Assembly: GCA_043803015.1 (NCBI GenBank)
Contig: JAZDKK010000023.1
Span: forward strand, 20,946-84,945
DNA from: Verrucomicrobiota bacterium
Lineage (GTDB): Bacteria; Verrucomicrobiota; Kiritimatiellia; CAIQIC01; JAGNIJ01
Direction of reading: 5' to 3'
DNA: 64,000 bases
Every line of letters begins with the position of its first letter. Within the stretch, counting starts at the first letter, position 1. A program made the position numbers and the translations under genes. Shown here piece by piece: positions 14,962 to 24,434 of the stretch. The notes under the pieces are model-generated. The model was not told where the DNA came from, did not search any database, and was given only the letters and a program-made list of their open reading frames with translations.

Positions 14962-15330
14962 GTCGCCATTCTGAGTCTGTTCCCTGTCCTCCACTATAGT
15001 TACCTCCTGCGACACTTTAAAACACTTCGACCCACCTCTTGTCAACAGCTTTTGAACATTTTTTTCTTCCAAGATGCCGCCGGAAGGGGCACGTTTGCCC
15101 GGAAACGCGGGGAATATGGAGGAACTATTAACAGGGAGGTGCACGACCTGACGGATTGGCGTCCCGGACCCGCTGTCCCCCACCAGGCCCCACACGTATT
15201 TGACACTCTTTTCGTCCACCATGTCCGCCGCGGTCATCCGCCTTCGCCAAGAGGCTACGGCGGACAAGCCGTCCGCGGCTGCAACTCATCGACATCGACA
15301 ACCAATTCATTTCATCACGGAGTCACGACC
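14962..15330. promoter_or_regulatory. divergent promoter region (dcw cluster / SIMPL gene)
   Basis: This 369-bp gene-free interval lies between the mraZ start and the SIMPL gene start. It is AT-enriched around 15040-15070. It contains a copy of the mini-element CGCCTTCGCCAAGAGGCTACGGCGG (15238-15262). Confidence 0.35.
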
Positions 15331-17326: not shown

Positions 17327-17332
17327 GTCCTG

Positions 17333-17370
17333 CTCGCTCTCGTTCTCGATCTCGTTCTCGATCTCGAGGA
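17333..17370. repeat. hexamer-periodic (CTCGNN)n repeat downstream of the aminopeptidase gene
   Basis: CTCGCTCTCGTTCTCGATCTCGTTCTCGATCTCGAG, the same family as 18402-18472, 24341-24375 and 33098-33160. Confidence 0.5.
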
Positions 17371-17483
17371 TCGCCGCAAAGAGGCTCAAGATGCACAAGG
17401 AGTGGACCTGCGGTCCGTCCGTTCACCCTCTTGTGACTCTTGCCTGCCCTGCGAAGCCTTGGCGAAGCAGGGCGCCTCTTTGT

Positions 17484-17541
17484 GGCCATCCTGGCCTTTC
17501 CGTTGCCCCTTGCGATCTCTGCGTTCTCTTGCGGCGATTCC
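17484..17541. repeat. intergenic repeat family X copy (TTGCGATCTCTGCGTTCTCTTGCGGCGATTCC core)
   Basis: Near-identical cores sit at 18551-18610 and 24216-24262, all in the same orientation. The 17395-17430 segment shares the GGAGTGGACC head. Confidence 0.5.
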
Positions 17542-17614
17542 TTTTCCGGCGAAGCCGGGCTCGTCATCATCGTTTCTGGTTTGCGCTCCGCGCGCGGACC
17601 GCTAGGATGGCGGC

Positions 17615-18400
17615 ATGATGCGCCGGTTCCTCGCGCTTCTCCTTCTGGCCTGGCCCTGCACCGTGCGGGCGCAGACCGCCACGAATCTGATCCAGCTCCA
17701 GCGTCAGGCCGCTGCGTTCTCGGTGAATCCCCCGCACGAACAGCGGGGCTACTTCGCCGCGGGCGCACAGCTGCAGGTCCTGGGTCCGGCGACCGGCGGC
17801 ACGGTGCGCGTGCGGTGCACCACGTCGGACGGCCGGATCATCGAGGCCCTCTGCCGCGCCGCGGACCTCGGCTCGGCCCCCCCCACCCCTTCCGCCTCCC
17901 CCTCACCGGTCGTCCCCCGGTCCGCCACGGTCCCGGTCGGCCGGACCGTCCCGGGAAGCATCTACGAGAACCCCGAGTGGCTGGAGGACAGTTTGGGGCA
18001 CAAGCTGGCGGTGGAGGCGCAAGCGAGATTCGATGTGAAGATGATTGTGTTCTTCTACGCGGACTGGAACGAGGAGTGCGAGCTGTTGTGGAAGGAGCTG
18101 CTCAGCGACCGCGAGTTCAGGCGGCAGACGAGGAATCTCATCAAGGTGCGGATCAACCCGGAGCACGGGAAGGCGGAGGGCCTGCTCGCGCGGTACTACC
18201 GTTTGCGGAAATATCCGACGACGTTCGTCGTTCGCCGGCCTCATGCCGAACCGAAGTACGTGGACCTCACGTACTACTCGTTCGGGAAGCTCAGGGTCTC
18301 CAAGCTCGACTACGCGATCGCCGATATCCTGGCCGCCGGCACCACGAACATGCCCGCTTGGCGCCATCCTTCGGTCACCAACCAACCGCCAACCCCCTGA
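17615..18400 (+). CDS. secreted thioredoxin-fold protein (degenerate CxxC: WNEEC)
   Basis: Signal peptide MMRRFLALLLLAWPCTVRAQ. The thioredoxin-like segment is KMIVFFYADWNEECELLWKEL..PTTFVV. Confidence 0.55.
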   Translation: MMRRFLALLLLAWPCTVRAQTATNLIQLQRQAAAFSVNPPHEQRGYFAAGAQLQVLGPATGGTVRVRCTTSDGRIIEALCRAADLGSAPPTPSASPSPVVPRSATVPVGRTVPGSIYENPEWLEDSLGHKLAVEAQARFDVKMIVFFYADWNEECELLWKELLSDREFRRQTRNLIKVRINPEHGKAEGLLARYYRLRKYPTTFVVRRPHAEPKYVDLTYYSFGKLRVSKLDYAIADILAAGTTNMPAWRHPSVTNQPPTP

Positions 18401-18401
18401 T

Positions 18402-18472
18402 CGGCCTCGGCCTCGGACTCGGCCTCGAAGCGCCCAGGAAATCGAGGCCGAGACCGAGTACGAGACCGAGGG
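18402..18472. repeat. hexamer-periodic (CCTCGG/CTCGNN)n hairpin after the thioredoxin-like gene
   Basis: The left arm CGGCCTCGGCCTCGGACTCGGCCTCG and the right arm CGAGGCCGAGACCGAGTACGAGACCGAGG form an imperfect ~27-bp stem with a 15-nt loop, right after the stop at 18398-18400. Confidence 0.5.
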
Positions 18473-18550
18473 AACAACTTCCCTGTCCCTCCCAACCTCC
18501 GAGGAAGACCAACCGCGGATTTCGCGGATTGCACGGATAGGTAATGCGGA

Positions 18551-18610
18551 GTGGACCTCTGGTCCTTCCGTTTGCCCTTTGCGCTCTCTGCGTTCTCTCG
18601 CGGCAATTCC
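18551..18610. repeat. intergenic repeat family X copy
   Basis: GTGGACCTCTGGTCCTTCCGTTTGCCCTTTGCGCTCTCTGCGTTCTCTCGCGGCAATTCC, compared with 17484-17541 and 24216-24262. Confidence 0.5.
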
Positions 18611-18679
18611 TCTTTCGGCGAAGGCGCGAAGGAATAAGGGAAGGCGAACCGCGGACTTGTCCGCGGTGGCGGATTTCCT

Positions 18680-18727
18680 CGAAGCAGATGCTTCGCATCG
18701 CTTCGGGGCACGGCACGGATTTCACGG
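18680..18727. repeat. left boundary inverted repeat of the low-GC island
   Basis: CGAAGCAGATGCTTCGCATCGCTTCGGGGCACGGCACGGATTTCACGG matches the reverse complement of 24143-24189 at ~45 of 50 positions. The related segment 18525-18560 matches the reverse complement of 24110-24155. Confidence 0.5.
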
Positions 18728-18800
18728 GCGCCTGCGATCTGCCCACCTCGCACGCCTAATTTGCAACTCAATCACCGGCCCCGTTTTGGAGACTGCTATT

Positions 18801-19688
18801 CTAATTCTCCTTCAAGCTCTTCTCGTACTGGATGAACTCGTCTGATTCGAGGATCTCCCGGAGGTAGGACGTCGGTACGACAAGGGAGATCTTCCCCCCG
18901 GTTGCGTCAGACAACCCACCGCTGAGGATGCCGACGAAATGAAGCTCTTCTCCGCCCTTCATCCGCTGTCCGGCGATACTAACGTTCGACATGATGTCTT
19001 CAGTGTAGAACACAGGAGCTCCGCTGTATCCCTGGGCGAGAGCCTGATCGAGAAGGATGAAGAGAAGTTCAGATGATACGTTCGGGTTATCTACCGATGT
19101 AAGCCTGCTTGCTATACGAGTTTCCTTTGCCAATGGGCTCAGGTTCTGTTGAACACCTTGTCCCAAGGGAAACCCCAAAACATATGCTGCTGTCAGTAGG
19201 GGAATCTCCTTCTTCTGCTGCGGGAAGAGGTCCTCGCCAATCACTATTTGTTCGGAATCCGTTGGGTAGCAGAGTGGGTGAATGGAGATGTCGGCTTTCG
19301 GGTGATGAAACCATCTTGCCCCTTTGATGATCTGTTGTTGCGAAATCCACTCAAACGTGAGGCTCGTGCTCTTGCCCCCAGAGAGATTCATAACGATCTC
19401 TGCTTTGGCTGAAAGGGCCTTGGCGACATGCTTTGCGGTGACGAGGTAGTCACTTCCATGATATCGGATTATGAGTCCTGATCCTGACATCACGTCCAGT
19501 TTCGGCTCCAGTTTCTCCGTTTCAGGATCGCGGTACCAGACTTCGACTTGCTTGCCACCTTTCATCTCGATCGACTGGGATCGCTGGCGCAAGAACACGA
19601 CGGTCTTGCTTAGGCTATCGATTGAAATCGCGTAGGCAGTCGCATGAAGTGAAAGACCTGCAAACAGATAGAGCAAGAGTCGTTTCAT
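18801..19688 (-). CDS. secreted trypsin-like (S1 family) serine peptidase
   Basis: The start is MKRLLLYLFAGLSLHATAYA (signal peptide). There is a His motif VTAKHVA and a Ser motif GYSGAPVF (GDSGGP-like). Local GC is ~50%. Confidence 0.7.
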   Translation of the reverse strand: MKRLLLYLFAGLSLHATAYAISIDSLSKTVVFLRQRSQSIEMKGGKQVEVWYRDPETEKLEPKLDVMSGSGLIIRYHGSDYLVTAKHVAKALSAKAEIVMNLSGGKSTSLTFEWISQQQIIKGARWFHHPKADISIHPLCYPTDSEQIVIGEDLFPQQKKEIPLLTAAYVLGFPLGQGVQQNLSPLAKETRIASRLTSVDNPNVSSELLFILLDQALAQGYSGAPVFYTEDIMSNVSIAGQRMKGGEELHFVGILSGGLSDATGGKISLVVPTSYLREILESDEFIQYEKSLKEN

Positions 19689-19790
19689 ATGGTACTTCCT
19701 TTGTGTATCGTGTTGTCTTCCCAACAATGCGGCTGAGTTTCGTTTCTTCCGCCGCGGAAAAAACACAGACTCCAGCCGCTGGTCGGAGGC

Positions 19791-20300
19791 TCAATTCTCC
19801 CCGCCAACAAGCGACACACTGCGTCCGCGAACAACCAAGGCTTTAGATCCCTTGTTTCTTGCGGCTAGTTCCGCCGCGTCTTTGCAGGCGTTCGTTTTAT
19901 CATCAAGGGGTTCGGGCACATCAGGCGCGAAATATTCAAGCGAGTATGCCGTGAGTGCCGGCTTGTCGATCTCATCCGTTTTCACTTCGATAATCCACTC
20001 GCATTCGCTTCGAGATTTGTAGCCGCTCTGCTGTTTGAATGTGTCCGTGCCGTAGTACTTCTGGCCAGCTGAATCTGTGACTTCAAAGGCGGACTTGAGG
20101 GTGCCAAAAAATTGGACGCCGTATTGAGTTGTTTTGACAGTGATCAGATACACCCTCTTACCCGCTGCATCTTTCCCGAGGTTTCGAGAAACCGATCCGA
20201 TATTGGCATGGGCCTTCGACGCGGCGATTGCGTCGCGGCAACACATGGTACCGACCAGGCAAACCACCAGACACGTAACGATAGTCGTCTTTGTCTCCAT
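19791..20300 (-). CDS. hypothetical lipoprotein
   Basis: METKTTIVTCLVVCLVGTMCC.. is a signal peptide with lipobox. RBS AGGAAAGGGG. The gene is low-GC. The longer ORF-track version, 19791..20489, runs into repeat A. Confidence 0.5.
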   Translation of the reverse strand: METKTTIVTCLVVCLVGTMCCRDAIAASKAHANIGSVSRNLGKDAAGKRVYLITVKTTQYGVQFFGTLKSAFEVTDSAGQKYYGTDTFKQQSGYKSRSECEWIIEVKTDEIDKPALTAYSLEYFAPDVPEPLDDKTNACKDAAELAARNKGSKALVVRGRSVSLVGGEN

Positions 20301-20353
20301 TTCGATCCCCTTTCCTGCAACGTCTGCCTTCAGCATCCGTAGTCTGGGGTAGT

Positions 20354-20632
20354 CCGGGGTCGAACCATAGCTTTCTCTAGAGCACCAACCACTTATGACT
20401 CCCAGAACCCACTTTTCACCCCTTACAGCTTCTTTTTCAGCCCGAAAATCGCTGCTAAGGCTCCCGTTCCTTGCGCAACACCCTCCCACCCGCGCCCTTG
20501 GGAGCTCAAGACGTGGCCGAAAAGAGCCTGTAAGCCCCCGTCTTAGCCCCTCTTGCCGTCGTAGGTCGTTGCCTGCCTAGACCGACCTGCTGCGCCTCGC
20601 CGAAGCCCCGGGCGAAGGCGGGTGGTCCAACC
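20354..20632. repeat. MITE-like repeat copy A (TIR CCGGGGTCG.ACC)
   Basis: Over 20375-20590 it shares ~85% identity with 22150-22365 (TCTAGAGCACCAACC..GCTCAAGACGTGGCCGAAAAGAGCCTGTAAGCCCCCGT..). It sits immediately 5' of the gene starting at 20300. Confidence 0.6.
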
Positions 20633-20649
20633 TCGCCATCCTGTCTTCT

Positions 20650-21339
20650 TCATCCTTCAATCCACCATCTCTGAGGTCCTGGCAGGGGAAGTGAGCTCGC
20701 GATCTGGTTGACAGCTTCAGCTGCGGACCGCACCAATCCTTTCATCCAGTCAAAATGAAAACAGATCTGTTTGTAGTGCTCTGTGGATGGCGAGGACTCG
20801 GTCACGTTTACATAGCTGACATTTGCCTTCCTGTCGGTCATGGGTCTGGAAGTGGCGAACTTGCCGAGCGAGTAGTTGTGGACAAGGCCGCAACGCGCTT
20901 CACGGTAGAGAAGGTGCGCGTAGCTGAATTGCCGCAATTGTTCCTTGGAGAGTTGGGGGCATTCTATGAGAAGGTCGTCTTCCATGCCGTCAGCGTCGTC
21001 ACCTGTAATAATCAACGCGTGATGCGGTGGTAGGTACTTCTGCCGGATTGAATCTGCGGCCTGTCGTTTGATGGGGTCTGTGTCGCGTGCGAATTCCTGA
21101 ACTAGCATCGCCGTGCTTATGAACTGCGTTTGGAGGGTTGGTTTGCAGTAGGTGACAAGGAGTTCAACGAAGCGCTTGCGATCGATTCTCTCGCCCGGCC
21201 AGACGAGCGAGGCGATTCCACTCAACACGGCAAGAAGTAGGATTACGGCCTCAGGGTAGCCTGCGTCGCAGGCTCCGTCGGCGAGTCTCTCTGCGATGCC
21301 GATGCGGTGCAGGGCGAATTTGTTGATCCAGTCATTCAT
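20650..21339 (-). CDS. hypothetical protein with a possible HEPN-like Rx4H motif (RCGLVH)
   Basis: 229 aa: MNDWINKFALHRIGIAERL.. It has no recognisable family. The HEPN suggestion rests only on the Rx4HxY pattern and the island context. Confidence 0.45.
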   Translation of the reverse strand: MNDWINKFALHRIGIAERLADGACDAGYPEAVILLLAVLSGIASLVWPGERIDRKRFVELLVTYCKPTLQTQFISTAMLVQEFARDTDPIKRQAADSIRQKYLPPHHALIITGDDADGMEDDLLIECPQLSKEQLRQFSYAHLLYREARCGLVHNYSLGKFATSRPMTDRKANVSYVNVTESSPSTEHYKQICFHFDWMKGLVRSAAEAVNQIASSLPLPGPQRWWIEG

Positions 21340-21349
21340 GTTTCCGCCT

Positions 21350-21456
21350 CCGGGGTCCTCCGGGGTCGGACCACAGGTTCCTCTAGAGCACCAACCAGTT
21401 ACAGTTCCCAGAACCCCGCTTAGCGTCCAAGTGGGGTTCGCCTTCTACGACCCCGG
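21350..21456. repeat. MITE-like repeat copy B (short form, ~107 bp)
   Basis: It starts CCGGGGTCCTCCGGGGTCGGACCACAGGTTCCTCTAGAGCACCAACCAG and ends CGACCCCGG. It sits immediately 5' of the gene starting at 21339. Confidence 0.55.
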
Positions 21457-21506
21457 CAGGAAACGCAGACTTCAGACACAAGATCGAGCCTTGGTCTGGC
21501 TAACGC

Positions 21507-21710
21507 CTAGGCGTGGAAGAACTCGATCAGTTCTTCCCAGCTCTTCCTCACGCCGTTTCCTCTACGCGTCCGGCCAGCGCACCACTCGATTGTGGCCCTG
21601 CCGATTCGGAGGTCACCTAGGTGTTTGTTCTGGCCGTCGTACACATCCAGTTCAATGCCGTTGTTCCCAATCTCCATACTAACCTGGAACTCCTTCACGC
21701 TAACCTTCAT
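21507..21710 (-). CDS. hypothetical small protein (67 aa)
   Basis: MKVSVKEFQVSMEIGNNGIELDVYDGQNKHLGDLRIGRATIEW.. It may be co-transcribed with 21808..22080. The start position is within +/-1 nt by my reading. Confidence 0.35.
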   Translation of the reverse strand: MKVSVKEFQVSMEIGNNGIELDVYDGQNKHLGDLRIGRATIEWCAGRTRRGNGVRKSWEELIEFFHA

Positions 21711-21807
21711 GTTATCCTCCCTGCTTCGTCGCTTGAACGTTACGGGCGGGCCGGCCGCAAGACCCGTTCGATGGCAGCCTTCACTCGCCCCGTGGCCCGC
21801 ACGTCAA

Positions 21808-22080
21808 CTATCTCTTCTTGGGGCGACCGGGGCGATTATGCGGGACGAGCCGCTTGACTTGGCTGAAGCCTTGGTCAAGTTGTTCGAACGCCTGCCGGGC
21901 GCCATCCTTCCTCCCTTGAATGTACACGGCTTGCATGATCTGGGCGAGTTTGACGCCTTCGTACAAACTGGCATTCCTGACAATGTCCTCTACGGCTTGC
22001 ACCAAACGCCTCCCGGCGTACAGCGTTAGCTCAGTGGTTGCCAATGCGACTTTGACGGTCTTGAAACCGCGTTTGCCCAT
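21808..22080 (-). CDS. hypothetical small protein (90 aa), possibly an RHH/antitoxin-like DNA-binding protein
   Basis: MGKRGFKTVKVALATTELTLYAGRRLVQAVEDIV.. RBS GGAAAGGAGAG. The antitoxin idea comes only from its size and position upstream of a second small ORF. Confidence 0.4.
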   Translation of the reverse strand: MGKRGFKTVKVALATTELTLYAGRRLVQAVEDIVRNASLYEGVKLAQIMQAVYIQGRKDGARQAFEQLDQGFSQVKRLVPHNRPGRPKKR

Positions 22081-22104
22081 GATAGCTCTCCTTTCTTCTC
22101 GCGT

Positions 22105-22384
22105 CCGGGGTCGGACCACCCGCCTTCGCCAGAGGCTACGGCGGGCACGACAGGTTGCTCTAGAGCACCAACCAGTTACAACTCCCAGAACCCCGCTTTT
22201 CACCCCTTACAGCCTCTTTTTCGGCCCGAGAACTGGCCGCAAGACTCCCGTTCCTCAGGCAGCACCGCCGCTCACGCCCTTAGAAGCTCAAGACGTGGCC
22301 GAAAAGAGCCTGTAAGCCCCCGTTTTGGCCCTTTTGCCGTCGTAAGTCGTTGGCTCCCTAGACAGACCTGTGGTCCGACCCCGG
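22105..22384. repeat. MITE-like repeat copy C (full form, with terminal inverted repeats)
   Basis: The left end is CCGGGGTCGGACCACC.. and the right end is ..CCTGTGGTCCGACCCCGG. A nested ~30-bp insert, CCGCCTTCGCCAGAGGCTACGGCGGGCACG, lies in the left TIR. It sits immediately 5' of the gene starting at 22080. Its right TIR encodes the last 8 codons of the 22358..23092 gene. Confidence 0.6.
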
Positions 22385-23092
22385 CAAAACACCTTGTTTC
22401 TCTGGCATGGCTTTCAAGTACTCGTCCGACTGAATCACGAGATCGATCCAGTTGACTGTCATGTTCACGAGTGCCTTGAGATCCCTGAGATCCTTCTCTT
22501 CCCATTTTCTCGTGTAGTGCGTTTCATCATTCCCTAACCATGCGGCACGCTTCGCGCAGTGCTTGATGCGATCTTCGTCAATGAACTGCTCGATGCATGT
22601 GGCAAGAAATGCCTTGGCCACCGCCGCAGCCTTTGATGCATCGCTTCTGAACTTATAGTGGATGATGAAGTCCTTAATCAGGAACTCTAGCGACTTGCGA
22701 TATCCCGGACCGGCAATCTGGTCCAGGCCGTTTTCCTCGGCCACGAGCGACTGGTTGTATGTCGTGCAGAAGACAGGGGAGAGCTTGGCAACCGCGTCGG
22801 GGAACGTCACGGCGTTCGCGGCGCGGAGTATCGTTGTTTCCACGAGATTGCACATAGCGTTCTGGACGGAGGTGCTGCGGGTATTGTAGGCGGCGATGAA
22901 CATCTCCTTGCAATCGTCAGCGGGACATATGAAGGAGACGCGGATCTTGTGATCTCCTTCGCTCAGGTAGTGCCCGATAATGGGTTGTGGCTTCACGGAT
23001 GTCTGGCATGCAGGGCACGTGTCGGGAAACTTGTTGATGCTGATGATGTGCTGCTGTCCCGTTTCATCCACGGCTGTGATTTGGTGCGGCAT
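22358..23092 (-). CDS. zinc-finger plus DUF4145-type (HEPN-superfamily) protein, candidate abortive-infection/defence component
   Basis: The N-terminus has CPAC..CPADDC. The C-terminus has ..DRIKHCAKRAAWLGNDETHY.. which fits the DUF4145 R..GN...H signature. Confidence 0.55.
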   Translation of the reverse strand: MPHQITAVDETGQQHIISINKFPDTCPACQTSVKPQPIIGHYLSEGDHKIRVSFICPADDCKEMFIAAYNTRSTSVQNAMCNLVETTILRAANAVTFPDAVAKLSPVFCTTYNQSLVAEENGLDQIAGPGYRKSLEFLIKDFIIHYKFRSDASKAAAVAKAFLATCIEQFIDEDRIKHCAKRAAWLGNDETHYTRKWEEKDLRDLKALVNMTVNWIDLVIQSDEYLKAMPEKQGVLPGSDHRSV

Positions 23093-23152
23093 GTTCTGGT
23101 TCTCCTGGAGCTAACGTCAAGAATCACCGTGCCCTGAACCTGCGCAGCAGGT

Positions 23153-23419
23153 TCAGGGCACCGTGGATTCTCTGGTTCGGCCGTGTTTGGTCTCGAAGGA
23201 TCTGAATCTTGACTTCCCCTCCTTGCGCAAGGACGCCAATTCCTTCTCAAGCCACGCGATCTGTGCGTCGAGTTCCTCGTAAGTCACACACTCGGCGCCG
23301 AGTAAGGTGTGGCGACCTTCCGTGAATCGGCATTTCAGACGAATGTGGGCGCGGGGTCGGCCGGGGAGATCGCCTTTACGTGGGGTTTGAAACAACAAGC
23401 CGAAGTATAGCGTCCTCAT
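23153..23419 (-). CDS. hypothetical small protein (88 aa)
   Basis: MRTLYFGLLFQTPRKGDLPGRPRAHIRLK.. Its start overlaps the upstream membrane-protein stop (ATGA at 23416-23419). Confidence 0.35.
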   Translation of the reverse strand: MRTLYFGLLFQTPRKGDLPGRPRAHIRLKCRFTEGRHTLLGAECVTYEELDAQIAWLEKELASLRKEGKSRFRSFETKHGRTRESTVP

Positions 23420-23847
23420 TCGTTCCTCCTTCTGATGGCGCTTCGCACAACTTCTGCGAGAAGCAGCAACAATCCCACTGACAAGGTGATCCAGCCTCTC
23501 CCCCATTCGGCACCTTGGTCGGCAATCTTCGCAAATGATGCGACAAACCGGTCACTGGCATTTGCCAATCCGAGCACTCGGTGGGCGGCTGCGTGGTAGC
23601 TGAAGATGGCCCACGCAAAACCCCCGAAGGCAAGAAGACAAAGTGGTCCGGCGATGCGTTCTCGGCCGGTAAACCAGAAGTAGAACGAGAGAACGCCCAC
23701 GGCTGAGAGGAAGAGCGCGCAGAAGGGATCTAATGTCCAGAGGACTGTCCCACCAAAAAGGGCATGCTCTTCTACCCTAATCCGCGGTGCGAGCGCGAGG
23801 ATGACCGATCCGATGAGCCCGAGACCATGCGTTTGTTCTTCTGGCAT
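23416..23847 (-). CDS. hypothetical membrane protein (3-4 transmembrane helices)
   Basis: 143 aa with hydrophobic segments IGSVILALA, LWTLDPFCALFLSAVGVLSFYFWF, LCLLAFGGFAWAIF and ITLSVGLLLLLA. Confidence 0.5.
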   Translation of the reverse strand: MPEEQTHGLGLIGSVILALAPRIRVEEHALFGGTVLWTLDPFCALFLSAVGVLSFYFWFTGRERIAGPLCLLAFGGFAWAIFSYHAAAHRVLGLANASDRFVASFAKIADQGAEWGRGWITLSVGLLLLLAEVVRSAIRRRNE

Positions 23848-24142
23848 CTTTGTTCTCCTGCAGAACAGTTTGCATTACTCAGTTAGGTTCACGCTTCCCT
23901 ATCCCTGCCGAATCCGGTGCCAGGCCAACCGTTGCCTATCCTGGCTGAGGTTGTCTTCCCCTCCTGCCGCGATCCGGATGCAGTCCGCCGTAGCGGGGGC
24001 GAGTATAGCGGGAGGGAGGGAAGCGCGCAATGCGCGCTTCAGGTTCAGAGTTCAAGGTTCAACCCGCCTACGGCGGGCAAGCATCGAACTAGGAAGCAGG
24101 CGCGTAGAAAGGAGGATCGGAGGTCCACCCCATGTTACCTAT

Positions 24143-24189
24143 CCGTGTAATCCGCGCTGTGCCCTGAAGCGATGCGAAGCATCTGCTTC
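24143..24189. repeat. right boundary inverted repeat of the low-GC island
   Basis: It is the reverse complement of 18680-18727 (CGAAGCAGATGCTTCGCATCGCTTC core plus CGGATT.CACGG tail). Confidence 0.5.
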
Positions 24190-24215
24190 GGGGTAATCCG
24201 CGGTTAGGCTTTTCC

Positions 24216-24262
24216 GGTCTGTCCGTTAACCTTGCGATCTTTGCGATCTTTTGCGGCAATCC
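24216..24262. repeat. intergenic repeat family X copy
   Basis: GGTCTGTCCGTTAACCTTGCGATCTTTGCGATCTTTTGCGGCAATCC. Confidence 0.45.
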
Positions 24263-24340
24263 GGGGCCGTCCGTTAGCGCAGGCAGGCTCTTCTTGTGGG
24301 TGATCTGAGTGTTCTGTGGGCTCTCTTCACTTGTCCTTTC

Positions 24341-24375
24341 GAGCACGAGGCCGAGAACGAGGCCGAGAACGAGCT
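24341..24375. repeat. hexamer-periodic repeat (reverse-complement orientation of the CTCGTT family)
   Basis: GAGCACGAGGCCGAGAACGAGGCCGAGAACGAGCT. Confidence 0.45.
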
Positions 24376-24434
24376 GAGCAATCTGCGTGTTCTGTGGGCC
24401 CCTCTTCGGCTGTCCGCGGCGGCCGGTTCGCGGT

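Follow-up and report, generated by a model that had tools for sequence, protein, structure and literature searches.

Three fold-back repeats between foreign island genes of an uncultured member of the Verrucomicrobiota: a possible locus-restricted family

The repeats described here lie in a 64-kb stretch of contig JAZDKK010000023.1 (hereafter, the window), which is 64 of the 98 kb of that contig and the part covered by the analysis of a metagenome-assembled genome from an uncultured member of the Verrucomicrobiota. The guanine plus cytosine (GC) content of the window is 65%, and it falls to 51–57% between approximately 18.7 and 24.1 kb. This low-GC region is an island of small genes, between which three related repeats, A, B, and C, are located:

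18730 to 24110, minus strand: low-GC foreign island of 5.4 kb with eight small minus-strand genes, between a thioredoxin-like gene/M29 peptidase gene and metG
20343 to 20636, plus strand: copy A, long form, 294 bp with an 11-nt terminal duplication, or 283 bp from 20354 (nhmmer E 2e-82)
21349 to 21456, plus strand: copy B, short form, 108 bp, or 97 bp from 21360 (E 4e-26)
22105 to 22384, plus strand: copy C, intact long form, 280 bp, with perfect 15-nt terminal inverted repeats (TIRs) at 22105–22119 and 22370–22384

Comparison of the copies bears out the central claim of a preliminary description of this DNA, namely that they form a discrete, TIR-bounded family placed in one orientation between successive genes of an acquired island. 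Copies A and C are 84.3% identical across 223 bp (E 3e-62), B and C are 92% identical across 52 bp, and B and A are 82% identical across 68 bp. The arm CTCTAGAGCACCAACC is common to all three, and the 22-nt core CTCTAGAGCACCAACCAGTTAC occurs three times, against 0.00 occurrences expected from shuffled sequence. The inverted repeats that had been noted at the ends of C are indeed clear; inward of their perfect 15-nt tips, the arms pair imperfectly over approximately 45 nt, and C also contains an inner inverted repeat (CTTACAGCCTCTTTTTCGGCC / GGCCGAAAAGAGCCTGTAAG). The exact terminus CCGGGGTCGGACCAC is confined to the left ends of B and C and, in inverted form, the right end of C. Similarly, the left arms of A and B are 78–81% complementary to the right arm of C over 43–46 nt. 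The differences that separate the left arm from the right arm (GGTTGGCTCCCTAGA in C) are the same in A as in C, and the element therefore has two distinct conserved ends.

Similarity among all copies begins and ends at (T)CCGGGG...CCCCGG, and such discrete ends argue for a unit that is recognised by an enzyme. The limits first given for the copies needed partial correction: the copies themselves are real, but A and B begin 11 nt further left (20343 and 21349), where the terminal 10 nt are tandemly duplicated. The two tandem tip copies are slightly diverged in A (20343–20364, TCTGGGGTAG followed by TCCGGGGTCGA) and in B (21349–21370, TCCGGGGTCC followed by TCCGGGGTCGG), and C has no such duplication. 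This tandem copy of the element's own terminus, left of A and B, is the sole flanking repeat. The flanks of C read ...CGCGT on one side and CAAAA... on the other, and A and B are likewise without a direct repeat of 2–9 bp. Moreover, the proteins encoded by the flanking genes g1 to g5 (listed below) have no similarity to each other. Since the copies have no flanking direct repeat and the genes around them are unrelated, they are discrete units and not by-products of segmental duplication. A tandem segmental duplication of a gene together with its spacer is ruled out by the unrelated flanking proteins.

A different form of duplication was also considered, in which one ancestral intergenic palindrome was copied locally, through gene conversion or through recombination, whether homologous or illegitimate, with neither dedicated mobility nor function. 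The confinement of the copies to 2 kb, their divergence of at least 16%, their deletions, and the failure to find a target duplication, an enzyme, or a copy elsewhere would all be accommodated by such a process. However, the boundaries of the copies coincide exactly with the TIR tips in three independent contexts with unrelated flanks, as random segmental duplication would not produce, and the presence of the same special sequence, inverted, at both ends is the hallmark of an enzyme-recognised end. We consider local copying to be an unlikely origin.

The copies differ in how well their ends and their fold are preserved. The two ends of A are approximately 59% complementary by manual count and are eroded. 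B retains an intact left arm, diverges past CCCAGAACCCCGCTT, and has a right terminus that is reduced to CGACCCCGG (9 nt). C folds as one long hairpin of approximately 280 nt that is more stable than expected (z -3.2 as DNA and -5.0 as RNA, with 0 of 200 shuffles as stable), the fold of A is no better than that of shuffles (z -0.1 and +0.4, respectively), and that of B is marginal (z -2.0 and -1.7). When the 100 predicted pairs of C are mapped onto A, 69 are kept (one of them by compensatory change), 19 are broken, and 12 fall in gaps. This lack of a conserved fold fits termini that mattered only for copying, followed by neutral decay. A and C differ by indels of 1–2 nt that interrupt all reading frames, and no open reading frame (ORF) is conserved across the six frames; a reading frame shared by A and C is therefore ruled out.

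The strong fold of C and the conservation of an internal block between A and C could also be expected of a structured non-coding RNA gene, or of a riboswitch-like leader, present three times. That explanation is extremely improbable, given that A has no fold excess, breaks nearly a fifth of the pairs of C and compensates for one, and that B is without most of the structure. A search of the 64 kb against Rfam returned no match at the gathering score, and at E<=5 the 18–25 kb region yielded just chance-level microRNA and long non-coding RNA matches. A structured RNA or riboswitch was rejected on the combination of no Rfam match, a copy A without a fold, and a single compensatory pair in 100.

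These features suggest that A, B, and C are a small, new, locus-restricted family of fold-back repeats resembling miniature inverted-repeat transposable elements (MITEs), with C intact and A and B decaying, a reading to which we assign a probability of about 0.5. The copies would have arisen by insertion or copying of a TIR-bounded unit through an enzyme acting in trans, which may since have been lost. They would now represent stages in the decay of what looks like leftover or selfish DNA: C is still intact, the termini of A have eroded, and B has lost its interior together with most of its right end. The copies fill intercistronic gaps, which may be the only places where an operon-like island tolerates them. 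Pairs of copies may in addition have bracketed and moved the genes between them, in the manner of MITE-flanked composite units.

Several observations weigh against this reading. No target-site duplication is present at any copy, not even at the intact copy C. Pfam scans of approximately 58 ORF translations from the window detected no transposase, integrase, or invertase domain. MITE families that occupy a whole genome tend to be dispersed, and all three of these copies lie within 2 kb. Neither BLAST nor a profile built from the three copies found a further one in the other 62 kb of the window, and the profile found none in approximately 250 kb of loci from relatives and g5 homologues (20 loci). 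Among one genome per species from 185,579 species, the left-arm pattern gave four matches, none of which extended past the pattern, where approximately eight were expected (an estimate). Neither this pattern nor an inner block yielded a copy in Joint Genome Institute (JGI) metagenomes, neither the pattern nor the 19-nt terminus yielded one in viral contigs, and blastn detected no copy in plasmids and phages. To pick up any further copies that had been annotated as spurious ORFs, the three elements were translated in six frames and joined into a chimeric query, which matched none of 5.8 billion proteins. The pattern scans of these collections return exact matches only, and the source genome is outside the searched sets; the absence of copies is therefore weak evidence.

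An additional point against simple decay is a 39-nt block, AGCTCAAGACGTGGCCGAAAAGAGCCTGTAAGCCCCCGT (20509–20547 and 22291–22329), that is identical in A and C, the remainder being approximately 80–84% identical. By a rough estimate the probability of such a block is approximately 0.03, which hints at a constraint beyond pure decay. The block could be a protein-binding core or a product of gene conversion. The preliminary description had called the elements MITE-like and had named confinement to one locus as a sign of local tandem duplication and not mobility; as far as the data reach, the copies are so confined. Because no target duplication, partner enzyme, or dispersed copy was found, the mobility of a MITE-like family is something we infer, not something shown.

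A shorter motif is nested within both long copies:

22118 to 22147, plus strand: nested hairpin in C, CCCGCCTTCGCCAGAGGCTACGGCGGGCA, which lies between GGACCAC and CAGGTT, interrupting the left arm of C, and is 90.6% identical to window 15235–15266
20598 to 20626, minus strand: nested hairpin in A, CCCGCCTTCGCC..GGCGAGG, within the right arm of A, mirroring the placement of the one in C

The motif is a GC-rich hairpin of approximately 30 nt with the form CCCGCCTTCGCC.GAGGCT.CGGCGGGCA. The host chromosome carries the same motif at 15235–15266, in the SIMPL–mraZ spacer (90–96% identical to the nested copies), a short form lies at 24066–24090 near the right edge of the island, and the syntenic spacer of two relatives contains it at 90% identity (L012, 16250–16279; L013, 13673–13702). 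It looks like a repeat of the lineage of the repetitive extragenic palindromic (REP) type, or like a conserved regulatory hairpin upstream of the division and cell wall (dcw) cluster. No REP-associated tyrosine transposase (RAYT) was seen. The presence of this host-type motif in A and C indicates that their family either has been in the lineage for some time or was assembled from lineage repeats. Its mirrored placement may mean that the ancestral element had the motif in both arms, or that the interior was once inverted with respect to the ends; on our reading, the interior of A is flipped relative to that of C when the nested hairpin is taken as the reference. A host origin had also been sought in the higher GC content of the elements. 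That argument was set aside as weak, because without the nested hairpin they have 58–59% GC, against 54–66% in other spacers of the island.

The genes among which the copies are placed are the following:

18801 to 19766, minus strand: g0, trypsin-like protease
19791 to 20300, minus strand: g1, island gene, ATG at 20300
20650 to 21339, minus strand: g2, ATG at 21339, stop codon at 20650–20652
21507 to 21710, minus strand: g3, island gene
21808 to 22080, minus strand: g4, island gene, ATG at 22080
22358 to 23092, minus strand: g5, match to PHROG 1305; one homologue is named DUF4145 by its source
22358 to 22384, minus strand: tail of g5 within the right TIR of C, last eight codons (PGSDHRSV) and TAG
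23153 to 23422, minus strand: g7, island gene
23416 to 23847, minus strand: g8, island gene

A recognisable family is missing for almost all of the island genes. The label DUF4145, applied earlier to g5, is backed only by the source name of one homologue and by PHROG 1305; g5 has no Pfam match at E<0.01. The g5 family is large (PHROG 1305, DUF4145-like), and its neighbours in other contigs (L005 and L008) are toxin–antitoxin and RelA/SpoT-like genes. The product of g0 has weak matches to proteases of defence systems (PADLOC PDC-S45, LmuA, and RT-protease). The island may be defence-related.

Each copy lies close to the start of the next minus-strand gene, as had been reported (20–60 bp): the left end is 53 nt from the ATG at 20300 for A, 20 nt from that at 21339 for B, and 24 nt from that at 22080 for C. 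The left arm of A is thus its part nearest g1, and its right end is 13 nt from the stop codon of g2. Translation also supports the earlier statement that the right TIR of C encodes the last eight codons and the stop of the upstream gene: the product of g5 ends ...KQGVL-PGSDHRSV. Most of the 42 g5 homologues in which the C-terminal motif could be located stop 2–6 residues past a conserved 'MPE'. The family therefore normally ends near this motif, and the tail of g5 is an add-on. The possibility that the right arm of C is the native 3' end of g5 was ruled out, as the tails of the homologues are unconserved, those of a few (P0004, P0005, and P0018) being vaguely like that of g5. At B, the complement of the duplicated tip yields GGAGG 7 nt ahead of the g2 ATG, and no other copy contributes to a ribosome-binding site. 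The copies would be mostly passive today, with the following known side-effects: a non-conserved 13-residue tail and a new stop for g5, part of a Shine–Dalgarno sequence for g2, and a hairpin of approximately 280 nt in any g5–g4 co-transcript. In the best-supported reading, such effects on neighbouring genes are incidental.

If they were not incidental, each repeat might be a regulatory module of the downstream minus-strand gene, serving as a promoter, 5'-leader, intercistronic RNA, or possibly an invertible promoter. The repetition of a single orientation, with the best-conserved arm 20–53 nt upstream of the next start codon, is suggestive in this respect, as are the perfectly conserved 39-nt block and the contribution of B to the g2 Shine–Dalgarno sequence. 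In addition, C has the architecture of an invertible promoter (perfect 15-nt repeats separated by 250 bp, 24 nt from g4), and the flipped interior of A could trace a past inversion. However, three copies out of three would share an orientation by chance with a probability of 0.25, the spacing from the ATG varies among the copies, neither A nor B has usable inverted repeats, and the window contains no invertase gene. No sigma-70-like promoter was found on either strand of 18.5–24.4 kb, where 2.0 would be expected by chance, with the qualification that the consensus may not fit this phylum. The Rfam result and the near absence of compensatory pairs similarly disfavour an RNA-level role. The promoter function that had been proposed for the elements accordingly finds no support in these data, and a regulatory module is quite unlikely.

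Other inverted repeats are present in the window. Between g7 and g5, at 23119–23174, a near-perfect hairpin of 27 bp, closed by a 3-nt loop (fold z -6.0), takes in the stop of g7 and the codons just before it. GCCGAAC and GTTAGCT flank this hairpin, whose sequence has no relation to those of A, B, and C. Far from the island, a pair of 48-nt inverted repeats (2368–2415 and 2825–2872) is 79% complementary over a separation of 409 nt and contains CAACGTCCAAC-like units.

The site occupied by the island was compared with the corresponding region of related genomes. The best match to the methionyl-tRNA synthetase encoded by metG, after its own, is 75–76% identical, and there is therefore no close relative for comparison. 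Nonetheless, the relatives are syntenic around the slot (metG, M29 peptidase, SIMPL, mraZ, mraW, and penicillin-binding protein genes), and the content of the gap between metG and the peptidase gene differs among them. For instance, the gap is empty (88 bp) in L015 and L016, holds one ORF in L014, a GH31 gene in L012 and L013, and three genes in L018–L020. Judged by this variation in sequence content among the relatives examined, the metG–M29 peptidase gap (window 17327–24434) is a hotspot of gene gain, and what the island represents is therefore an insertion at a variable site. An attachment site derived from a tRNA was ruled out, as no tRNA gene and no transfer-messenger RNA (tmRNA) gene is present in the window.

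The island is bracketed by inverted spacer repeats of host type (18523–18727 and 24113–24201) that contain CGCGGATTnCACGGAT units and are complementary over 59 nt at 90% and 44 nt at 84%. A second spacer repeat has three copies in direct orientation (sites also at 17482–17557, 18551–18626, and 24230–24260). Possibly a mosaic repeat was the landing site of the island; alternatively, the entire segment may be invertible. The longest ORF in this area, 17440–18540 on the plus strand, is probably spurious because its translation is rich in Arg, Pro, and Gly and it overlaps a spacer repeat. An ORF nested within it (17615–18400, plus strand) has a weak thioredoxin-like match (E 5.6e-5).

The variable slot raises the possibility that the repeats are joints between acquired genes. 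In one version, they would be cassette-junction sites at which a recombinase encoded elsewhere joined the genes, whether as attC sites, as attC clusters that have no integron integrase (CALIN), or as a non-integron analogue. The layout invites such a comparison: the island is a one-directional array of small genes of no known function, with a GC content well below that of the host, in a slot that relatives leave empty or fill differently. A palindrome follows each gene or pair of genes, namely g7 (the hairpin at 23119–23174), g5 (C), g3 (B), and g2 (A). The stop codon of the upstream gene falls within two of these four palindromes, a frequent arrangement for attC sites, and the repeats carry a motif of the host lineage and lie among genes that look foreign. 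A CALIN, moreover, needs no nearby integrase.

The details fit less well. The total length of attC sites is approximately 57–141 nt, and only B (97–108 nt) is within this range, A (283–294 nt) and C (280 nt) being two to three times too long. In the published description, attC sites have R and L boxes with AAC/GTT triplets, unpaired spacers, extrahelical bases, and a variable loop of 20–100 nt (PMC4889954). By eye, AGCCAAC/GTTGGTG occur inside the arms of the elements rather than at their ends, and the palindrome extends outward past any such boxes to the CCGGGG tips. When the R-box/spacer/L-box layout was sought by a heuristic scan, the window had 33 background matches, none of them in the island. 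Unlike that of attC sites, the hairpin of the folded strand is not maintained in every copy, having decayed in A, and the hairpin at 23119–23174 is without evident extrahelical bases. The approximately 58 ORF translations scanned from the window included neither a tyrosine nor a serine recombinase, and no PF00589 match that could mark an integron integrase. Finally, no comparable repeats occur in the contexts of g5 homologues (L005–L010). On size and box layout, membership of the elements in the attC class was rejected, and with it the attC analogy drawn in the preliminary description; that cassette junctions of some kind gave rise to the repeats seems unlikely. The contrast that accompanied this analogy, according to which attC sites are conserved only in structure, was itself inaccurate, because chromosomal integron arrays often have attC sites that are conserved in sequence. 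Within one integron, attC sites are more similar to each other, and more so in longer arrays, and integrons have been reported in Verrucomicrobia (Cury et al., PMC4889954).

In another version, the repeats would be junction sites of a gene-capture system outside the integrons. The hotspot beside metG would gain foreign genes one or two at a time, through host-type fold-back sites of approximately 280 bp and a recombinase or transposase encoded elsewhere; equivalently, genes would be carried in as a unit between paired elements. On this view, proteins would bind to the conserved left arm and the 39-nt block. We regard this scheme as improbable.

Whichever process was at work, the repeats are a previously unseen small family in an uncultured Verrucomicrobiota genome, and they have value for annotation. 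They account for the odd C-terminal tail of g5, identify over-long ORFs that extend into them as artefacts, and show how far the foreign island extends within its variable chromosomal slot. Their significance would be greater if they were joints of non-integron gene capture or phase-variable switches, neither of which has positive support here.

Invertons, such as fimS and the capsule promoters of Bacteroides, are segments of 100–750 bp that lie between short perfect inverted repeats upstream of a gene, and several loci can have the same repeats. Copy C alone resembles them, in its perfect 15-nt repeats, the 250 bp between these, and its distance of 24 nt from the g4 ATG; it differs in that no promoter was detected inside it and no invertase nearby, and intact repeats are found in no other copy. 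REP sequences and bacterial interspersed mosaic elements (BIMEs) are the comparison class for the nested hairpin (PMC3733652), which is likewise a short GC-rich palindrome, repeated in host intergenic DNA, common to relatives, and able to form mosaics. In contrast, the A, B, and C units, at 100–290 bp, far exceed REPs in size and are not dispersed.

Another parallel may be offered by Tn3-derived inverted-repeat miniature elements (TIMEs) and the integron mobilization unit. They are 100–300 bp in length, have long inverted repeats of approximately 38–46 bp with the outer end GGGGTC..., and pairs of copies can bracket and mobilise intervening genes. A, B, and C differ from them in having no 5-bp target duplication, two extra C at their termini, and an inner end without the Tn3-type TAAG, and no Tn3-family transposase is present in the window.

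The Correia elements of Neisseria (Correia repeat enclosed elements, CREE), enterobacterial repetitive intergenic consensus (ERIC) sequences, and the repeat unit of pneumococcus (RUP) are small (approximately 100–300 bp), non-coding, TIR-bounded elements that can fold back and occur in long and deleted forms. The Correia elements duplicate a TA target, whereas no target duplication was found at A, B, or C, and these three copies in 2 kb contrast with the tens to hundreds of dispersed copies of such families. A, B, and C also have no sequence relative in the collections searched and no identified partner transposase. They nevertheless resemble these systems in being small, non-coding, TIR-bounded, and foldable, with long and internally deleted forms, and in lying between genes, near gene ends, where they can supply stop codons or expression signals to their neighbours. 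Among the defining features of MITEs, they lack a target-site duplication and have both the TIRs and the small, non-coding form (97–294 bp). The family would thus be new, and its kind, that of MITE-like, non-autonomous, TIR-bounded repeats, is one that is already known.

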